From an uncultured Planctomycetia bacterium (lineage in GTDB: Bacteria > Omnitrophota > Gorgyraeia > Duberdicusellales > 4484-171): a DNA stretch of 32,000 bases. The notes below the pieces were generated by a model that worked only from the letters and a program-made list of their open reading frames with translations, was not told the origin of the DNA and made no database searches. This document shows positions 15,034 through 22,768 of this stretch, piece after piece. Position 1 is the stretch's first letter. Each line of letters starts with the position of its first letter. Where the stretch lies: contig CAZHYN010000005.1 of the NCBI GenBank assembly GCA_964536865.1, forward strand, positions 1-32,000, given 5' to 3'. The position numbers and the translations under genes were made by a program.

Positions 15034-15322
15034 CCCCGCCCTTTTTATTTTCCCAAAAGAGTAAGAGTATTCTTAATCCTTTTCTTAAGATGTCCTAACG
15101 AAGAACCATACAACTTTAGCTTTTTCTCTCTACTAAAAGCATCTTTTTTAGAAAGATATGCTTCATAATATACCATCACATAATCTTTTTTAGTTTTTTT
15201 ATGTTGCTGAATCCTATCTTTTAAAGAGGAAGTAACTCCTATATAGAAGTGCCTTCTCTTAGGATTAAAAAGGAGATATACATAATACATCTTACCTCCT
15301 TTGGGTATTGAAAAGGGCGGGG
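15034..15322 (-). repeat. hairpin-bounded insertion (IVS) in the 3'-terminal domain of 23S (H98-equivalent tip), carrying a GIY-YIG ORF
   Basis: ccccgcccttttt (15034-15046) pairs with aaaagggcgggg (15311-15322). The flanking sequence aligns with the E. coli region around 2790-2800. The interior is AT-rich and almost entirely ORF. Confidence 0.75.
15045..15290 (-). CDS. small GIY-YIG (URI-domain only, YhbQ/COG2827-like) nuclease-family protein
   Basis: MYYVYLL...RHFYIGVTSSLKDRIQQHKK...YYEAY..K.DAFSREKKLK contains the GIY and YIG motifs and the conserved R/E/K pattern. RBS aaaggaggtaagATG. Same strand as the rRNA. Confidence 0.7.
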   Translation of the reverse strand: MYYVYLLFNPKRRHFYIGVTSSLKDRIQQHKKTKKDYVMVYYEAYLSKKDAFSREKKLKLYGSSLGHLKKRIKNTLTLLGK

Positions 15323-15566
15323 AGGGATCCCTAGTTTTGGGGTGAGCTTCCCGCTTAGATGCCTTCAGCGGTTATCTCCTAGGAACACGGCTACCCAGCC
15401 TTTACCGCTGGCGCAATAGCTGGTACACCGGAGGTTCCTCTGTCCCGGTCCTCTCGTACTAGGGACAGCTCCCCTTCAAGGATCCTTGCACCCACAGTGG
15501 ATAGAGACCGACAATCTGTTACTTTCTCCTACCTCAAAAGTTTTATAATTTAAGGTAGGATACTGA

Positions 15567-15671
15567 CCCAGCCTTTTTTAATTTCTATTTATCTTAAGTA
15601 AAAGATTAATCTTCTTTGCAAAATATTGAAAATAACCGCTGTTTTTTCATAGGTTGAATAAAAAGGCTGGG
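15567..15671 (-). repeat. GC-clamp hairpin insertion nested in the 3' part of the intron at 15512..16423
   Basis: cccagcctttttt (15567-15579) pairs with aaaaaggctggg (15660-15671), with an AT-rich interior. Confidence 0.65.
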
Positions 15672-15734
15672 CGGCCTGACATTTCTGTCAGACTCTCACC
15701 GTCCCCGGTGAGTTCGGACTGTATCTTCCCCACG

Positions 15735-16262
15735 CTACGTTGGGGTCTGGCGTACAGTCTCTGAGGGTTCTAGAAGGAGAAATAACTCCTTAAGTGGTAG
15801 TTTTCTATATCTACCACTGCTATTCATGGAGTGGGCGATTCTTAAAATTTTCTTTAAACCTTCAAGGGTGAGATGAAGTTTCTTCCCCATCATTCTTACC
15901 ACTTCTTTAAACTTCTCAAAATCATCTCTTTTAGAAAAAAGAGAGTATTTTTCAAAAAAAGGAATCACACGTTGTTCTAAATTCTTTAAATCTCGCACCA
16001 CTAACACCCAAGTAAGATCATAGGGATTTCTGGAATGATTAGGTTTAATATACCCACAACCAAGATGTCTCTGGATTAACTCCAACACTTCCTTACGGTT
16101 ACGGTGCTGACACACATGAAACTCAGGAATAACCTGAATTCCTAATCTCACATTCTTACTTCTCTGGATAGAAATGGAGAAACTTCCCTCGCCATCTACA
16201 AAACCGGCGATATAATCGCCCCACTCTCCTTCTAGCCTTCCCTGCTGGTTATCTGCACCCAT
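15735..16262 (-). CDS. single-motif LAGLIDADG homing endonuclease
   Basis: YIAGFVDGEGSFSISI LAGLIDADG motif near the N-terminus, about 175 aa (I-CreI/I-CeuI size class). RBS aggag. Located inside the intron on the rRNA sense strand. Confidence 0.8.
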   Translation of the reverse strand: MGADNQQGRLEGEWGDYIAGFVDGEGSFSISIQRSKNVRLGIQVIPEFHVCQHRNRKEVLELIQRHLGCGYIKPNHSRNPYDLTWVLVVRDLKNLEQRVIPFFEKYSLFSKRDDFEKFKEVVRMMGKKLHLTLEGLKKILRIAHSMNSSGRYRKLPLKELFLLLEPSETVRQTPT

Positions 16263-17070
16263 ATATTTTTACTCCTGACTACTCACCACCCTATTATTTC
16301 AAAGTGGTCCCTTAAAAAAGGGAATCTCTATAGAATAGCATATAGAGACTGAATAATCAAGTAGTAATATGGGATACTCAGACTTCCCAGCATATAGCCA
16401 GATTTATAGACAGCACGGTTCGTACTGTCTCACGACGTTCTGAACCCAGCTCACGTACCCCTTTAACCGGCGAACAGCCGGACCCTTGGGAGCTTCTCCA
16501 CCCCCAGGATGGGATGAGCCGACATCGAGGTGCCAAACCGGGCCGTCGATGTGAACTCTCGGGCCCGATAAGCCTGTTATCCCCGGAGTACCTTTTATCC
16601 GTTGAGCGATGGCGCTCCCACGCGCAACCACCGGATCACTAGGCCCCGCTTTCGCGTCTGCTCGGCCTGTCGGCCTCACAGTCAGGCACCCTTATGCCCT
16701 TACACTCAACGTCCGGTTTCCAATCGGACTGAGGGTACCTTTGGGCTCCTCCGTTACCTTTTAGGAGGAAACCGCCCCAGTTAAACTGCCCAACTGGCAC
16801 TGTCCCCCGACGTAACGTCAGAGTTAGAACCTTAGTACGGTAAGGGTGGTATTTCACTGACGGCTCCCCCCGAACTGGCGTCCGGGGTTCACAGCCTCCC
16901 ACCTATACTACACATACCGGACCAAAATTCAATACCAGCCTGCAGTAAAGGTTCCGGGGTCTTTTCGTCCAACTGCGGGTAGGCGGCATCTTCACCGCCA
17001 CTACAATTTCGCCGGCTGCCTCCCCGAGACAGCGCTCCCGTTGTTAAACCTTTCGTGCGGGTCGGAACTT

Positions 17071-17444
17071 CACCTTAATCTTGGTGTTTCCACCAAGGGT
17101 GGACTATACCTTCACCCCACCCTTTCTATCCACGCAAATTAATTGAAACTGAGTAATTTTTAAGATACTTAACCAAACGAAAATATCCTCTTCCTCTTAA
17201 ATTAGGTGTTTAGAAAGAGTGGGGGCCGGCGTATTAGCCATCCTTTAATTTGAGTTCTTAGAACTCATAAGATGGCTCCCTTCCCTTAAAAGAGAAGGAG
17301 TCTCTACGGGGTCATCAAGGAAAAAATTCCCTTTAGACTTCCCTCGGGATTACCCAGTATTCTCAAAAGAATCCTTAGGGCTTTCCCGATATGAGCCGGT
17401 GTTTCATCCCAATTTGCATTGGGAAGGGGCAAGTTTAAAAACTT
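17071..17444 (-). mobile_element. ORF-less group I intron in 23S after U1951-equivalent (GUCGGGU|AAGUUCC)
   Basis: Exon ...tagtcgggt | aagtttttaaacttgccc (P1 helix with U-G at the splice site) ... gaaggtatagtcc ... gattaaggtg | aagttccgacccgcacgaa. The intron ends in G and has no ORF. Confidence 0.7.
17115..17245 (-). repeat. GC-clamp hairpin insertion nested in the intron at 17071..17444 (immediately 5' of the aaggtatagtcc element)
   Basis: ccccaccctttcta (17115-17128) pairs with tagaaagagtggggg (17231-17245). The single non-Watson-Crick position is a G-U wobble only in the rRNA-sense transcript. Confidence 0.65.
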
Positions 17445-17499
17445 ACCCGACTAGGAATTTCGCTACCTTAGGCATTCCTTTCGGAATGGACCATATCTT

Positions 17500-20885: not shown

Positions 20886-21399
20886 TAAATTCTCCTTATG
20901 CAAAATTAACACTTGTAACCATCTAGAGCTTCCAAGTCAAAGCTTAAAAGTTTGTATAAAATAAAAAGCCTTTGGAGGATTTAAGATTCTCTACTCTCAC
21001 GTAGAGTTAGAAAGGAGGTGATCCAGCCGCACGTTCCCGTACGGCTACCTTGTTACGACTTAGCGCCAATCATGGAATTCACCGTGACCCCGACGTAATG
21101 TCGGAGCTTCGGGCGCCCCCCACTTTCAGCGCTTGACGGGCGGTGTGTACAAGGCCCGGGAACGTATTCACGGCGCCGTGGCTGATGCGCCATTACTAGC
21201 GATTCCAGCTTCACGAGGGCGGGTTTCAGCCCTCGATCCGAACTGGGCCGGCTTTTTAGGGATTTGCTCCACCTTACGGCTTTGCCTCCCGCTGTAACCG
21301 GCATTGTAACACGTGTGTAGCCCAGGGCATAAGGGCCATGCGGACTTGACGTCGTCCCCACCTTCCTCCCACTTAACGCGGGCAGTCCCCTTAGAGTGC

Positions 21400-21499
21400 C
21401 CCAGCCCTTTTTATTCCCTGATTAATACAAATTATTGAAAATTTAATTAAAGATACAGCACTTTATCATTTCTTTAATCAAAGTATAAAAAGGGCTGGG
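21400..21499 (-). repeat. intervening sequence in 16S helix 39-equivalent
   Basis: cccagccctttttat pairs with ataaaaagggctggg (15 bp) around an AT-rich loop of about 70 nt, between gttgctac and cactctaagg. Confidence 0.7.
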
Positions 21500-22158
21500 T
21501 AGCAACTAAGGGCGAGGGTTGCGCTCGTTCTCCCACTTAAGGGAACACCTCACGGCACGAGCTGACGACAGCCATGCAGCACCTGTGCAGGTTCCCGACT
21601 GGATACGGGTGGCAACCCCTTTCGGAGCGCTACTACCTACATGTCAAGCCCTGGTAAGGTTCCTCGCGTAGCATCGAATTAAACCACGTGTTCCACCGCT
21701 TGTGCGGGCCCCCGTCAATTCCTTTGAGTTTTAGCCTTGCGGCCGTAGTCCCCAGGTGGGGCACTTAACGCGTTAGCTTCGGCACCCCCCTAAAATAGAG
21801 GGACACCTAGTGCCCATCGTTTACAGCTAGGACTACCAGGGTATCTAATCCTGTTTGCTCCCCTAGCTTTCGTCCCTGAGCGTCAGGACTGAACCAGAGA
21901 GCCGCCTTCGCCACAGGCGTTCCTGCCGATATCCACAGATTTCACCCTTACACCGGCAGTTCCGCTCTCCTCTTCCAGCCTCGAAGCCAAGCAGTTTGAA
22001 AGGCACTTTCCCGGTTAAGCCGGGAGATTTCACCTTCCACTTACTTGGCCGCCTGCGGACCCTTTACACCCAGTCAAACCGAGTAACGCTAGGTGCCTCC
22101 GTATTACCGCGGCTGCTGGCACGGAGTTAGCCGCACCTTATTCATCGGGTACAGTCAG

Positions 22159-22185
22159 TCCCACCCTTTTATTAAAAGGGTGGGA
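22159..22185 (-). repeat. 'empty' GC-clamp hairpin at 16S helix 17-equivalent tip
   Basis: tcccaccctttt-att-aaaagggtggga. Confidence 0.6.
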
Positions 22186-22426
22186 TTTCCTCCCCGATAA
22201 AAGGGGTTTACACGCCGAAGCGCTTCATCCCCCACGCGGCGTCGCATCCTCAGGCTTTCGCCCATTGGGAAAGATTCTCGACTGCAGCCTCCCGTAGGAG
22301 TCCGGGCAGTGTCTCAGTCCCGGTGTGGCTGACCACACACTAATGCCAGCTACCCGTCTTAGGCTTGGTAGGCCATTACCCTACCAACTACCTGATAGGA
22401 CGTGAGCCGCTCTTGGAGCGGCAGCA

Positions 22427-22532
22427 TCCCGCCTTTTTTACTCAGGGAAATATATTAAAGAAAACTCTCTCTTCTCTGTCCCTCTTCCCACAATACAATT
22501 CTTTCCTCTCAAAGGTGTATAAAAAGGCGGGA
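22427..22532 (-). repeat. intervening sequence in 16S helix 10-equivalent
   Basis: tcccgcctttttta pairs with taaaaaaggcggga (14 bp) around an AT-rich loop of about 79 nt. Confidence 0.7.
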
Positions 22533-22655
22533 GAGGCCACCTTTACTCCTAAGACATCTCAGTCTCAGGAGACCATGGGGTATTACCTCCGATTTCTCGA
22601 AGCTATCCCCCTCTCCAAGGTACGTTACCCACGCATTACTCACCCGTTTGCCGCT

Positions 22656-22768
22656 ATCCCACCCTTTCTACTACCCCCAATAAAGACTTTAAGAAATGAA
22701 CTAAACCTTACTTCTTACCTTAAACTCGGTTTCCTTCTCAATAAAGGGAGTAATAAAAAGGGCGGGAT
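22656..22768 (-). repeat. intervening sequence in 16S helix 6-equivalent
   Basis: In the sense transcript, atcccgcccttttt pairs with agaaagggtgggat (14 bp including two G-U wobbles) around an AT-rich loop of about 84 nt. It lies just after gcatgcaagtcgagcg. Confidence 0.7.

Follow-up and report, generated by a model that had tools for sequence, protein, structure and literature searches.

A GC-rich stem shared by ten hairpins of an rRNA operon as the probable terminal inverted repeat of a very small selfish GIY-YIG cassette

Introduction

In the rRNA operon of an uncultured Omnitrophota bacterium, a GC-rich clamp closes ten hairpins; it is probably the terminal inverted repeat shared by a family of selfish DNA cassettes of very small size. 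These represent inserted DNA, since a given site is occupied in some related genomes and vacant in others, and the same arms recur in unrelated contexts and in two phyla. Their sites are the apical loops of hairpin-coding DNA, and wherever a cassette lies inside an rRNA gene, its ORF runs in the direction of the host transcript. Moreover, the complementarity of the arms is maintained at the RNA level, and these self-pairing ends probably render the elements harmless in rRNA helix tips and intron loops.

The shared stem in the rRNA operon

The window, i.e. the whole 32-kb stretch of DNA that was analysed, carries a minus-strand rRNA operon comprising the 16S rRNA gene (22836-21011), tRNA-Ile, tRNA-Ala, the 23S rRNA gene (20339 to ~14965) and the 5S rRNA gene (14848-14732). 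Allowing for at most one mismatch, the motif CCCRCCCTTT has 21 matches in the window, whereas shuffled controls have 4.2 on average and at most 11. Every match lies between 15035 and 22766, and the window has no copy outside the rRNA operon, where an earlier reading of the sequence alone had noticed none either. The matches form ten hairpins of the general stem form CCC(R)(G)CCCTTT / AAAGGG(C)(Y)GGG, all of them in the operon and each closed by the shared stem according to RNAfold, which confirms the ten near-identical stems that this sequence-only reading had described in 16S rRNA, 23S rRNA and introns (Table 1). Its coordinates stand for most sites, except that the outer end of the H45 element had been placed 10 nt too far out (19097 instead of 19087) and that of the intron 2 element was off by 20 nt (17245 instead of 17225). 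The helix assignments in 16S and 23S rRNA were checked against E. coli rRNA, and the sites include H45 and h6/h10, which are helices of classical intervening sequences (IVS).

Of the ten, one copy carries an ORF (at 23S H98), seven are ORF-less, 99-111 nt long and similar to miniature inverted-repeat elements (MITEs), and two are solo stems, which are most simply explained as copies whose centre was lost. Near-perfect duplexes of 12-26 bp, several of them of at least 20 bp, constitute the stems, with only 11-12 bp in the two solo stems, and both arms of any one element have the matching variant. Among the window elements, no significant similarity was detected between the interiors, in agreement with the earlier description, or between them and the GIY-YIG gene. 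In group I intron 2 the stem represents helix P8 and is followed by J8/7 UGAAGGUAUAGUCC in the alignment to Rfam RF00028, while the element of intron 1 is assigned to P8 because AAAGAUAUGGUCC flanks it, in analogy to intron 2. The LAGLIDADG ORF of intron 1 (18180-17530) extends into the latter element and has its stop codon there.

Within the window, local enrichment in rRNA becomes weak if insertions are tolerated solely in non-coding DNA: no copy of the stem occurs outside the operon, where the non-coding part amounts to only ~3 kb as estimated from the list of ORFs, which yields a p of about (8.1/11.1)^10 = 0.04. Besides the shared stem, a second stereotyped hairpin (CGACRTWAYGTCG) is present on five further rRNA helices, with 0.01 expected.

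Table 1. Elements of the shared-stem family in the window and the ORF carried by one of them.
Feature	Site	Position	Length	Strand	Arms and remarks
ORF-carrying cassette	23S H98 tip	15322-15034	289 nt	-	arms CCCCGCCCTTTT (15322-15311), AAAAAGGGCGGGG (15046-15034)
GIY-YIG ORF	within H98 cassette	15290-15045	81 aa	-	Pfam PF01541, E = 1.3e-9
ORF-less element	P9 extension of group I intron 3	15671-15567	105 nt	-	arms CCCAGCCTTTTT; intron ~16420-15512
ORF-less element	group I intron 2	17225-17115	111 nt	-	stem = helix P8; intron ~17439-17066
ORF-less element	group I intron 1, P8 (assigned by analogy)	17599-17501	99 nt	-	intron 18260-17473
Solo (empty) stem	replacing 23S H63	18454-18427	28 nt	-	CCCCGCCCUUUC-UAAA-GAAAGGGCGGGG
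ORF-less element	23S H45	19087-18977	111 nt	-	arms CCCAGCCCTTTCTA
ORF-less element	16S h39 tip	21499-21400	100 nt	-	arms CCCAGCCCTTTTTAT
Solo (empty) stem	16S h17 tip	22184-22160		-	CCCACCCUUUU-AAU-AAAAGGGUGGG
ORF-less element	16S h10	22531-22428	104 nt	-	arms CCCGCCTTTTT
ORF-less element	16S h6	22766-22658	109 nt	-	21-bp stem, four G.U, zero mismatches

Architecture of the cassette and its nuclease

Among 80 metagenomic loci that encode relatives of the GIY-YIG protein, 71 have the gene between the two halves of an exact inverted repeat, as does the window itself, and the complete element of these bracketed loci spans 241-331 nt. Such a complete cassette consists of a gene for a Slx1/UPF0213-type GIY-YIG protein of ~80 aa between C-rich and G-rich arms of 12-25 nt each, and is compact to the extent that the start codon follows 0-25 nt past the 5' arm while the stop codon (TAG or TAA) lies in or adjoins the 3' arm. 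In the H98 cassette, AAGGAGG is located 6 nt upstream of the ATG. The nuclease comprises the catalytic domain only and is devoid of a DNA-binding domain. Across 61 GIY-YIG sequences, Y5, Y16, R26, H30 and E55 never vary, and the AF2 model of the window protein (pLDDT 94) has its top PDB matches in the UPF0213 protein BH0048 and Slx1, with I-TevI ranking behind; judged by conserved residues and predicted fold, the protein looks functional.

CCCCGCCC arms are common to eighteen elements, the proteins of which are 39-99% identical (mean 55%). The coupling between arm variant and protein similarity is loose (mean identity of 0.60 for the same arm variant versus 0.51 for different arms), and it is therefore putative that the nuclease recognises the arms specifically. 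In two of the loci (L008 and L010), PF05635 genes are likewise situated between inverted repeats, the sequence of which is unrelated to the cassette arms.

Occurrence in other genomes

rRNA is present in 25 of the 80 loci, with the GIY-YIG ORF co-oriented in all 25, and ~22 cassettes are embedded in 16S or 23S rRNA genes at no fewer than nine helices, including H25, H63, h6, h17, h39 and the h44 tip. Several of these sites are those of the window: a GIY-YIG cassette occupies H63 in L023, where the window has a solo stem, two further ones (L043, L080) sit exactly at the loop position of the h17 solo stem, and others are found at h39 (L067, L070), while h6 harbours GIY-YIG cassettes or ORF-less elements in L046, L054, L077 and L091.

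The other bracketed cassettes lie between ordinary genes, for instance in an intergenic position in L008, between genes for an ABC-transporter ATPase and a protein with aspartyl/lysyl-type tRNA-synthetase domains in the Omnitrophica MAGs L010/L011, and upstream of radC in L012. In addition, ORF-less copies of 96-104 nt, matched by a pattern with ~0.07 occurrences expected by chance, were encountered in four loci of Patescibacteria (CPR) and in one MAG labelled Gammaproteobacteria; one patescibacterial copy resides inside an FMN riboswitch, and copies also occur in intergenic DNA of this phylum. A solo stem is found upstream of rplM in the Omnitrophota relative L098.

Comparison of relatives revealed presence/absence polymorphism of the stems. 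L096, which shares the rRNA-xseA gene order of the window (XseA 72% identical), has native or unrelated hairpins instead of the shared stem at H45 (an unrelated 38-nt AT-rich hairpin), H63 (an unrelated native hairpin) and H98. In L099/L100 (XseA 80% identical), H98 features only a degenerate solo stem, and in L099 two C>T changes in this empty stem break the DNA palindrome but preserve RNA pairing. The same two genomes retain arms and flanks of the intron 3 element around a diverged interior that falls 33 nt short of that in the window; comparison with L099 shows conserved arms and a fast-evolving interior in this element. L091 contains two ORF-less copies that are ~90% identical and thus represent a recent duplication in one genome; the first lies at 16S h6, the second farther towards the 3' end, between h39 and the strand that closes h38. 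On the other hand, a homologue of the intron 2 element resides in an extra intron of strain L094, and copies in introns may have been carried along by the introns instead of being inserted independently. No consistent target-site duplication was found.

Pairing at the RNA level and possible route of spread

Read in the strand of ORF sense, the stems of 65 distinct loci contain 52 G.U as opposed to 4 A.C positions, and the stem helix is therefore selected in RNA, which upholds the earlier claim of selection on RNA structure on stronger grounds than the window alone. Extended and ungapped, the window stems comprise 132 Watson-Crick pairs, 6 G.U and 2 A.C; hence, the statement that non-Watson-Crick positions are G-U in the rRNA sense only applies to most of them, though not to the two A.C, both of which fall within the 12-nt core. 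Part of the G.U excess could stem from surplus C>T changes on the non-transcribed strand, but to our knowledge a 13-fold bias is far above known strand asymmetries.

For a selfish cassette, pairing of the arms in the transcript would turn the insertion into an additional length of helix on the surface of the ribosome or at the intron periphery; alternatively, RNase III would cut it out as in a classical IVS, and in both cases the host RNA would still work. The nuclease, for which either the host transcript or the piece cut out of it would serve as mRNA, would have as its substrate the palindromic or cruciform arms or else vacant palindromes, because it is of the structure-specific Slx1 type and lacks a DNA-binding domain. 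This action might trigger repair by which the cassette is copied, preferably into native stems already starting CCCC.../...GGGG. For the ORF-less copies, descent from complete ones can be argued only from shared arms and uniform length, as the interiors are dissimilar.

Alternative explanations

One alternative overlaps heavily with the selfish cassette and differs from it mainly in where the boundary of the element is drawn: a short palindromic hairpin, which spreads or pre-exists, would constitute the homing site, and the GIY-YIG gene would enter its centre, decay and be lost, leaving fillers and empty stems behind. In line with this idea are the solo stems (H63, h17, H98 in L099 and the one preceding rplM in L098), hairpins of 36-47 nt adjoining cassettes in L014 and L016, and GIY-YIG cassettes of other genomes that occupy precisely the loop position of the solo stems seen here at h17 and H63. 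Moreover, a split palindrome would shield occupied sites from cleavage, and the changes in the empty stem of L099 disrupt the palindrome solely at the DNA level. However, it is left unexplained how the palindrome reaches new helices, the ORF-less interiors hold no recognisable ORF remnant, and the perfect H63 solo stem is unconverted beside an apparently intact nuclease gene in the same operon, which argues against cleavage and conversion of every empty stem. We consider this account unlikely.

Among the three explanations offered by the sequence-only reading, hairpin-targeting insertion comes closest, while a conserved rRNA-specific processing signal is ruled out by the standards that this reading had itself set, as stems occur outside rRNA and are missing from the same helices in the syntenic L096. 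In its general form, a host-selected processing signal would make the stem a site for RNase III or for a lineage-specific endonuclease or binding protein, excision would lead to fragmented rRNA, and the need of the host would conserve the stem. Near-perfect duplexes, of which those of at least 20 bp would suit RNase III, pairing selected in the sense transcript and the use of the IVS helices H45 and h6/h10 speak for such a signal. It is nevertheless rather improbable: outside rRNA, identical arms flank ORF-less hairpins as well as GIY-YIG genes, the hairpins of L096 at H45, H63 and H98 are unrelated, and RNase III is not known to require a fixed sequence or to act on duplexes as short as the 11-12 bp of the solo stems. 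Excision of the inserts may well happen as a by-product of element design instead of a host signal.

Convergent or concerted native helix caps, GC-rich for thermostability in a vent-dweller and homogenised among rRNA hairpins by gene conversion in the absence of any mobile element, are very improbable, for although rRNA has a G+C content of ~52-55% versus ~33% in the flanks, strain L095 stems from a hydrothermal vent metagenome and the second hairpin suggests some homogenising process, the same arms occur in Patescibacteria MAGs, metagenome contigs and non-rRNA DNA, they flank a conserved nuclease gene in most loci, and AT-rich interiors of ~100 nt contribute no stability.

Comparison with known systems

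The elements share several traits with MITEs and palindromic repeats such as the Correia elements of Neisseria, Rickettsia palindromic elements and REP/REPIN with RAYT, which are ORF-less multicopy sequences of ~100-150 nt with terminal inverted repeats, form hairpins in transcripts and are tolerated within genes for structured RNA; in REP/RAYT, the associated gene is also flanked by copies of the inverted repeat. In contrast to these, a consistent target-site duplication is lacking here, the interiors are not conserved between copies and the partner gene encodes a GIY-YIG nuclease instead of a DDE or Y1 (RAYT) transposase. Homing endonuclease genes of introns, with their cycle of gain, degeneration and loss, likewise combine a nuclease gene in a carrier neutralised at the RNA level with presence/absence polymorphism and with ORF-less and empty forms. 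Their carrier is a ribozyme, whereas that of the cassette is a plain hairpin, the nuclease of which is closest to Slx1/UPF0213 and not to I-TevI, and the sites of which are alike in helix geometry and not in sequence. GC clusters and double-hairpin elements of fungal mitochondrial rRNA genes also resemble the present stems, being GC-rich palindromes that populate variable regions of rRNA in an AT-rich genome.

It was too strong to hold that the literature has nothing comparable to the shared clamp. Non-intron insertion sequences are known from CPR rRNA genes (Brown et al. 2015, as cited in PMC11270868), and a survey of such genes catalogued GIY-YIG ORFs exclusively in non-intron insertions, at several poorly conserved sites, together with many uncharacterised ORF-less insertions of <200 bp at helix tips (PMC11270868). 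These are almost certainly the same objects as the cassettes and ORF-less elements, although the survey mentions neither the shared inverted repeat nor the link between ORF-carrying and ORF-less forms, non-rRNA copies, nesting in introns or Omnitrophota; beyond these catalogued GIY-YIG-coding insertions, we found no description of the shared arm architecture.

Bacterial rRNA IVS also include ORF-carrying forms, as exemplified by the 23S H45 IVS with an S23p/PF05635 gene in Leptospira and Coxiella (PMC4990558). Like the cassettes, they insert at variable helix tips (H45, H25, h6, h10), extend the stem by complementary ends, may contain a small ORF, occur sporadically among relatives and are regarded as selfish. 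The cassettes differ from them in that their excision by RNase III is putative, they are common outside rRNA, their ORF encodes a GIY-YIG nuclease instead of PF05635, and one arm family is used at ten sites, including P8 and P9 of group I introns.

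The clamp stems in the rRNA operon

Rfam detected a complete minus-strand rRNA operon in the window together with one group I intron. Three group I introns interrupt the 23S gene (see the table), two of which carry LAGLIDADG ORFs. The operon is neighboured by xseA/xseB and by genes for an M48 peptidase, HcyBio and an epimerase, the flanking genes having a G+C content of about 33% versus 50-55% for the rRNA. The contig stems from a metagenome assembly, the named homologues of its XseA belong nearly all to Candidatus Omnitrophica/Omnitrophota, and the source of a 96%-identical strain is a hydrothermal vent metagenome. 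A 1067-aa ORF in the window has no Pfam match.

Coordinates of features in the window and in the comparison loci (L-numbers)
Feature	Sequence	Position	Strand	Basis
16S rRNA	window	22836-21011	-	Rfam
23S rRNA	window	20339 to ~14965	-	Rfam (start); sequence reading and comparison with a relative (end)
5S rRNA	window	14848-14732	-	Rfam
tRNA-Ile, tRNA-Ala	window	16S-23S spacer		ARAGORN
Group I intron 1 in 23S	window	18260-17473		sequence reading and comparison with a relative
Group I intron 2 in 23S	window	~17439-17066		sequence reading and comparison with a relative
Group I intron 3 in 23S	window	~16420-15512		sequence reading and comparison with a relative
LAGLIDADG ORF of intron 1	window	17530-18180		
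1067-aa ORF	window	26521-29724		
23S processing stem	window	14857-14946, 20332-20428		
Second hairpin	window	16808-16820, 18644-18656, 19635-19647, 20174-20186, 21091-21103		
Third motif	window	~18745-18710 (23S), ~20720-20690 and ~20490-20450 (16S-23S spacer)		
Extra group I intron	L094	1-230		
Extra insertion after 5S	L094	2126-2767		
FMN riboswitch	L007	7605-7808		Rfam
ORF-less element in FMN riboswitch	L007	7656-7753		
ORF-less elements with inverted interiors	L005, L006	336-435, 344-447		
ORF-less element at tRNA-Pro	L074	415-519		
Small PF05635 genes and one PDDEXK_3 gene	L010, L008	L010 4715-5080, 6139-6525, 7519-7881; L008 15703-16080		

With at most one mismatch, the clamp motif CCCRCCCTTT has 21 matches in the window, all within 15035-22766 (shuffles, 4.2), and these pair into ten hairpins, each of which is closed by the common stem in RNAfold. 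The sharing of one stem by ten sites, as proposed in a preceding sequence-only reading, is hence borne out, and so are most of its coordinates except for the outer ends 19097 and 17245, which lie beyond the true ends by 10 and 20 nt. Alignment with E. coli locates the rRNA elements at the tips of 16S helices h6, h10, h17 and h39 and of 23S helices H45, H63 and H98; at all seven sites, the alignments and RNAfold indicate that the apical part of a variable helix is replaced and that the ends of the insert form an extended stem. The clamp stem of intron 2 is helix P8 itself, by analogy that of intron 1 would be P8 as well, and the element of intron 3 is located in a P9 extension.

The window comprises one complete copy at H98, which encloses an 81-aa GIY-YIG ORF (Pfam PF01541, E = 1.3e-9), seven ORF-less copies of strikingly uniform length (99-111 nt) with exact arms of 11-15 nt, and two solo stems of 25 and 28 nt, i.e. 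arms devoid of an interior. Within each element the arm variant is identical on both sides (CCCAGCCC twice, CCCAGCCTTTTT, CCCGCCTTTTT, CCCCGCCC). A second C-rich block, TTTTTAYTNNCCC, was seen by eye in only about six of 16 arms and was not adopted as a conserved feature. An all-against-all comparison of the window interiors yielded no significant similarity among the copies or to the GIY-YIG gene, which agrees with the mutual dissimilarity noted previously. When trimmed interiors were aligned locally to the GIY-YIG cassette and compared with shuffles, no more than two marginal, AT-rich matches emerged (z ~4, 14 tests); these were not accepted as evidence that the ORF-less elements are internal deletions of this cassette. 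The LAGLIDADG ORF of intron 1 crosses the 5' arm of the nested element and stops inside it, which suggests that the insertion replaced the original 3' end of the ORF.

The nuclease gene and its arms

Homologues of the GIY-YIG protein number 221, with lengths of 78-107 aa, and derive, where the source is named, from Omnitrophica and several CPR phyla. The homologous ORFs in L008, L010/L011 and L012 are located among ordinary genes, with CCCCGCCCTTT...AAAGGGCGGGG as their bracketing arms. Screening of metagenomes with an alignment of 12 sequences verified 562 relatives; in 71 of the best 80 of these 562 loci an exact inverted repeat brackets the ORF, the bracketed elements measuring 241-331 nt. 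Their arms are C-rich variants of one theme, e.g. CCCCGCCC, CCCAGCAC, CCCCTCAC and CCCCCCAC, and CCCCGCCC arms are common to 18 elements of this set, the proteins of which are 39-99% identical. Gene and arms are closely fitted: the ATG directly abuts the arm in one locus (L018), and in many cassettes the 3' arm contains the TAG/TAA stop codon. Co-evolution of nuclease and arms as a sign of specific recognition was rejected, the coupling being weak and confounded by shared descent.

Y5, Y16, R26, H30 and E55 and several further residues do not vary among 61 sequences, and the 81-aa protein thereby possesses the Tyr, Tyr, Arg, His and Glu of the GIY-YIG catalytic core. Its AF2 (AlphaFold) model has a pLDDT of 94 and a fold that matches GIY-YIG structures. 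Foldseek ranked the UPF0213 protein BH0048 (1zg2, probability 0.99, 30% identity) and Slx1 entries (7cq2, 4xm5 and 6seh, probability 0.99-1.0, TMq 0.57-0.66) ahead of the I-TevI catalytic domain, with E-values of 0.007-0.14, weak on account of the small domain size; a sequence search against PDB chains gave no match. Judged by the predicted structure, the nuclease fits the Slx1/UPF0213 clade, its minimal GIY-YIG fold being closest to structure-specific nucleases. A homing endonuclease of the I-TevI type was dismissed, since the protein consists of the catalytic domain only and has no separate DNA-binding domain, NCBIfam grpIintron_endo reaches 19 bits against a cut-off of 56, and no Rfam family matches the elements themselves, so that the carrier is not an intron.

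Distribution within and outside rRNA genes

Among the best 80 of the 562 loci, rRNA is present in 25, and about 22 cassettes are embedded in 16S or 23S at no fewer than nine helices, encompassing H25 (nine loci), H63, h6, h17, h39, the h44 tip and others. Two cassettes (L043, L080) sit exactly at the loop of the h17 stem that is empty in the window, and another (L023) occupies H63. In this set, ORF and rRNA have the same orientation in 25/25 rRNA loci, and outside rRNA the orientation of the nearest large ORFs agrees with that of the cassette ORF in a ratio of 36:9 upstream and 32:12 downstream, which suggests a dependence on host transcription. The flanks of many loci contain further ORF-less copies of about 97-128 nt as well as matching-arm hairpins of 36-47 nt.

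Scanning 185,579 species genomes for the pattern CCCGCCCTTTYTA-N70-100-TARAAAGGGYGGG, for which about 0.07 chance matches are expected, retrieved five loci, four of them in Patescibacteria/Parcubacteria MAGs and one in a MAG labelled Gammaproteobacteria, none of the five being in rRNA. In one Patescibacteria MAG (L007), a 98-nt ORF-less element resides inside an FMN riboswitch that still scores 96 bits against Rfam; the other four loci are intergenic. The sole interior match in the all-against-all comparison connects two contigs of one MAG (L005 and L006), in which the flanks are identical and the interior is inverted (z = 28, reverse orientation), consistent with flip-flop recombination between the arms. 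Moreover, an Omnitrophota relative (L098) has an imperfect solo stem upstream of rplM, and in L074 an ORF-less element adjoins the 5' end of tRNA-Pro, its 3' arm overlapping the acceptor stem; the 8-nt repeat GGGGCGTA on both sides of this element, in conjunction with the overlap, suggests insertion by microhomology. The clamp can therefore not be upheld as an rRNA-specific signal, given the copies in the FMN riboswitch and intergenic DNA.

Gain, loss and target sites

Comparison with related operons likewise disfavours a conserved rRNA stem at these helices. In L096, whose XseA is 72% identical and whose rRNA-xseA gene order is that of the window, the clamp is missing at H45, H63 and H98: H98 is native and GCAA-capped, H45 bears an unrelated 38-nt hairpin and H63 an unrelated short hairpin, and intron 3 is absent. 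In L099/L100 (XseA 80% identical), H98 features only a degenerate short stem, CCCTGCTC-TTTTTA-GGGCGGGG, the 3' arm of which equals the clamp and the 5' arm of which carries two C>T changes that give G.U pairs in the RNA. Presence is thus sporadic among related genomes at H45, H63 and H98. The intron-3 element of L099/L100 has arms and flanks identical to those of the window; its interior has diverged and is shorter by 33 nt. Two ORF-less copies of about 90% identity occur in a single 16S gene of L091, at h6 and between h39 and the closing strand of h38. No consistent fixed-length target-site duplication was found in the flanks of 26 elements, a few of which have TGAA/TTCA on both sides.

The close strains L094 and L095 (95-96% identical) share the elements of the window and provide no presence/absence information at these sites. 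L094 (95% identical) possesses an extra group I intron near 23S position 2449 with its own clamp element in P8, and an extra insertion of about 640 nt just after 5S with two small ORFs, which from their size and arrangement we would guess to be a toxin-antitoxin pair.

Selection for pairing in RNA

Ungapped pairing of the arms on the ORF-sense strand of 65 distinct elements resulted in 1094 Watson-Crick, 52 G.U and 4 A.C pairs. Under a neutral model, G.U and A.C would be roughly equal in number. The observed excess thus demonstrates that the helix is preserved in the sense transcript, both within rRNA and elsewhere, and arm pairing is hence selected in RNA. The window by itself has 132 Watson-Crick, 6 G.U and 2 A.C pairs; the earlier claim that wobbles arise in the rRNA-sense transcript through selection on RNA structure stands accordingly, though not its assertion that they are the only mispairs. 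Several stems attain 20 bp or more in RNAfold, a predicted length that would be compatible with RNase III excision without religation and hence with fragmented rRNA, and the solo stems, at 11-12 bp, probably stay in the rRNA.

Other repeats in the operon

Five further rRNA helices, the tip of 16S h44 among them, are capped by a second hairpin, CCCCGAC-RTWAY-GTCGGGG, whose loop occurs in either orientation (five occurrences versus 0.01 predicted by shuffles). At these places L096 has native hairpins that are related but different. P8 of intron 3 matches the consensus in L094 and reads CCCCAACGTAGCGTGGGG in the window, a difference that hints at homogenisation between hairpins. A third motif, GTTTCCGCCAAAGGCGGAC(C), precedes a second small hairpin and was noted once within 23S and also in the 16S-23S spacer. 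The 23S processing stem contains heptamer-like repeats (TTACAGA/TTACAAA) and an 18-nt perfect complement, and the arms around PF05635 genes in L008 are similarly repeat-built (CTTGTATCTTGTAGCTTGTA...).

A probable nuclease cassette with paired ends

The cassettes represent DNA inserted at hairpin tips, with conserved arms and drifting interiors. We consider it likely that a small selfish cassette, which in its complete form encodes a minimal GIY-YIG nuclease, has the clamp as its terminal inverted repeat. Arm pairing would turn the insert into either a harmless helix extension or an intervening sequence excisable by RNase III, and the nuclease may promote copying by acting on the arms in palindromic or cruciform form or on palindromes that are empty. 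Favoured landing sites might be native stems starting with CCCC/GGGG, which are found at H98 in L096, in intron P8 and at the tRNA-Pro 5' end in L074. That a perfect solo stem persists at H63 in the company of an intact nuclease gene, and that target-site duplications are lacking, calls for caution towards any simple mechanism.

A more speculative scheme, which we put forward with considerable reserve, is a class of palindrome-homing cassettes unrecognised before: a minimal Slx1-like GIY-YIG nuclease, presumably a dimer, would recognise its own arms in the form of an unbroken palindrome or cruciform (the solo stem) and cut them, whereupon the cassette would be copied into the centre, the splitting of the site protecting occupied copies. 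The arms would constitute a ribozyme-free neutralising device at the RNA level, the equivalent of a self-splicing intron, allowing the cassette to spread into helices of rRNA, loops of introns, riboswitches and the spacers of operons in Patescibacteria (CPR) and Omnitrophota.

Arm-bracketed cassettes unite the GIY-YIG ORFs and short unexplained insertions of CPR rRNA genes, the rRNA intervening sequences and the hairpins in group I intron loops as one family of recognisable architecture and extend it to Omnitrophota. The rule by which they are spotted (C-rich arm, interior of about 100 or 290 nt, G-rich arm) should be of use in annotating rRNA genes, in surveys based on 16S and in designing primers for uncultured lineages. 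They further offer a testable model of a nuclease gene living in essential RNA genes without a ribozyme, and a candidate for biochemistry, namely a minimal nuclease of about 80 aa that is possibly palindrome- or structure-specific.

Relation to known systems

The element is an intervening-sequence-like and MITE-like cassette with a GIY-YIG gene and not an rRNA-specific signal. Its ORF-less copies resemble MITEs in their terminal inverted repeats, small size, non-coding character and several copies per genome (seven in the window, two in L091), but differ by the absence of a fixed-length target-site duplication. With regard to a partner element, the ends are common to the GIY-YIG cassette; the nuclease is no known cut-and-paste transposase, and the interiors have no homology to its gene. 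Unlike in REP/RAYT systems (REPINs), the flanked gene encodes a GIY-YIG nuclease instead of a Y1 (IS200-like) transposase, and no RAYT was present among the scanned ORFs of the window.

The likeness to rRNA intervening sequences lies in the replaced tip of a variable helix, the paired ends and the sporadic occurrence in relatives. A survey of CPR rRNA genes reported GIY-YIG ORFs exclusively in insertions that are not introns, the sites being scattered and poorly conserved, in addition to many short uncharacterised helix-tip insertions presumed to be intervening sequences, and makes no mention of inverted repeats, hairpins or palindromes (PMC11270868). ORF-carrying intervening sequences are well known, for instance in Coxiella (PMC4990558); for the shared architecture of arm and nuclease, no description was found in the full-text literature, a coverage that excludes most subscription journals. 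In an Omnitrophica MAG, small PF05635 (23S_rRNA_IVP) genes and a PDDEXK_3 gene are inserted among the genes of an operon for an oligopeptide transporter; the PF05635 genes, in L008 and L010, have inverted repeats of 24, 12 and 13 nt on either side that are unrelated to the clamp. That the PF05635 genes are likewise bracketed by repeats suggests a broader class of hairpin-bracketed mini-cassettes.
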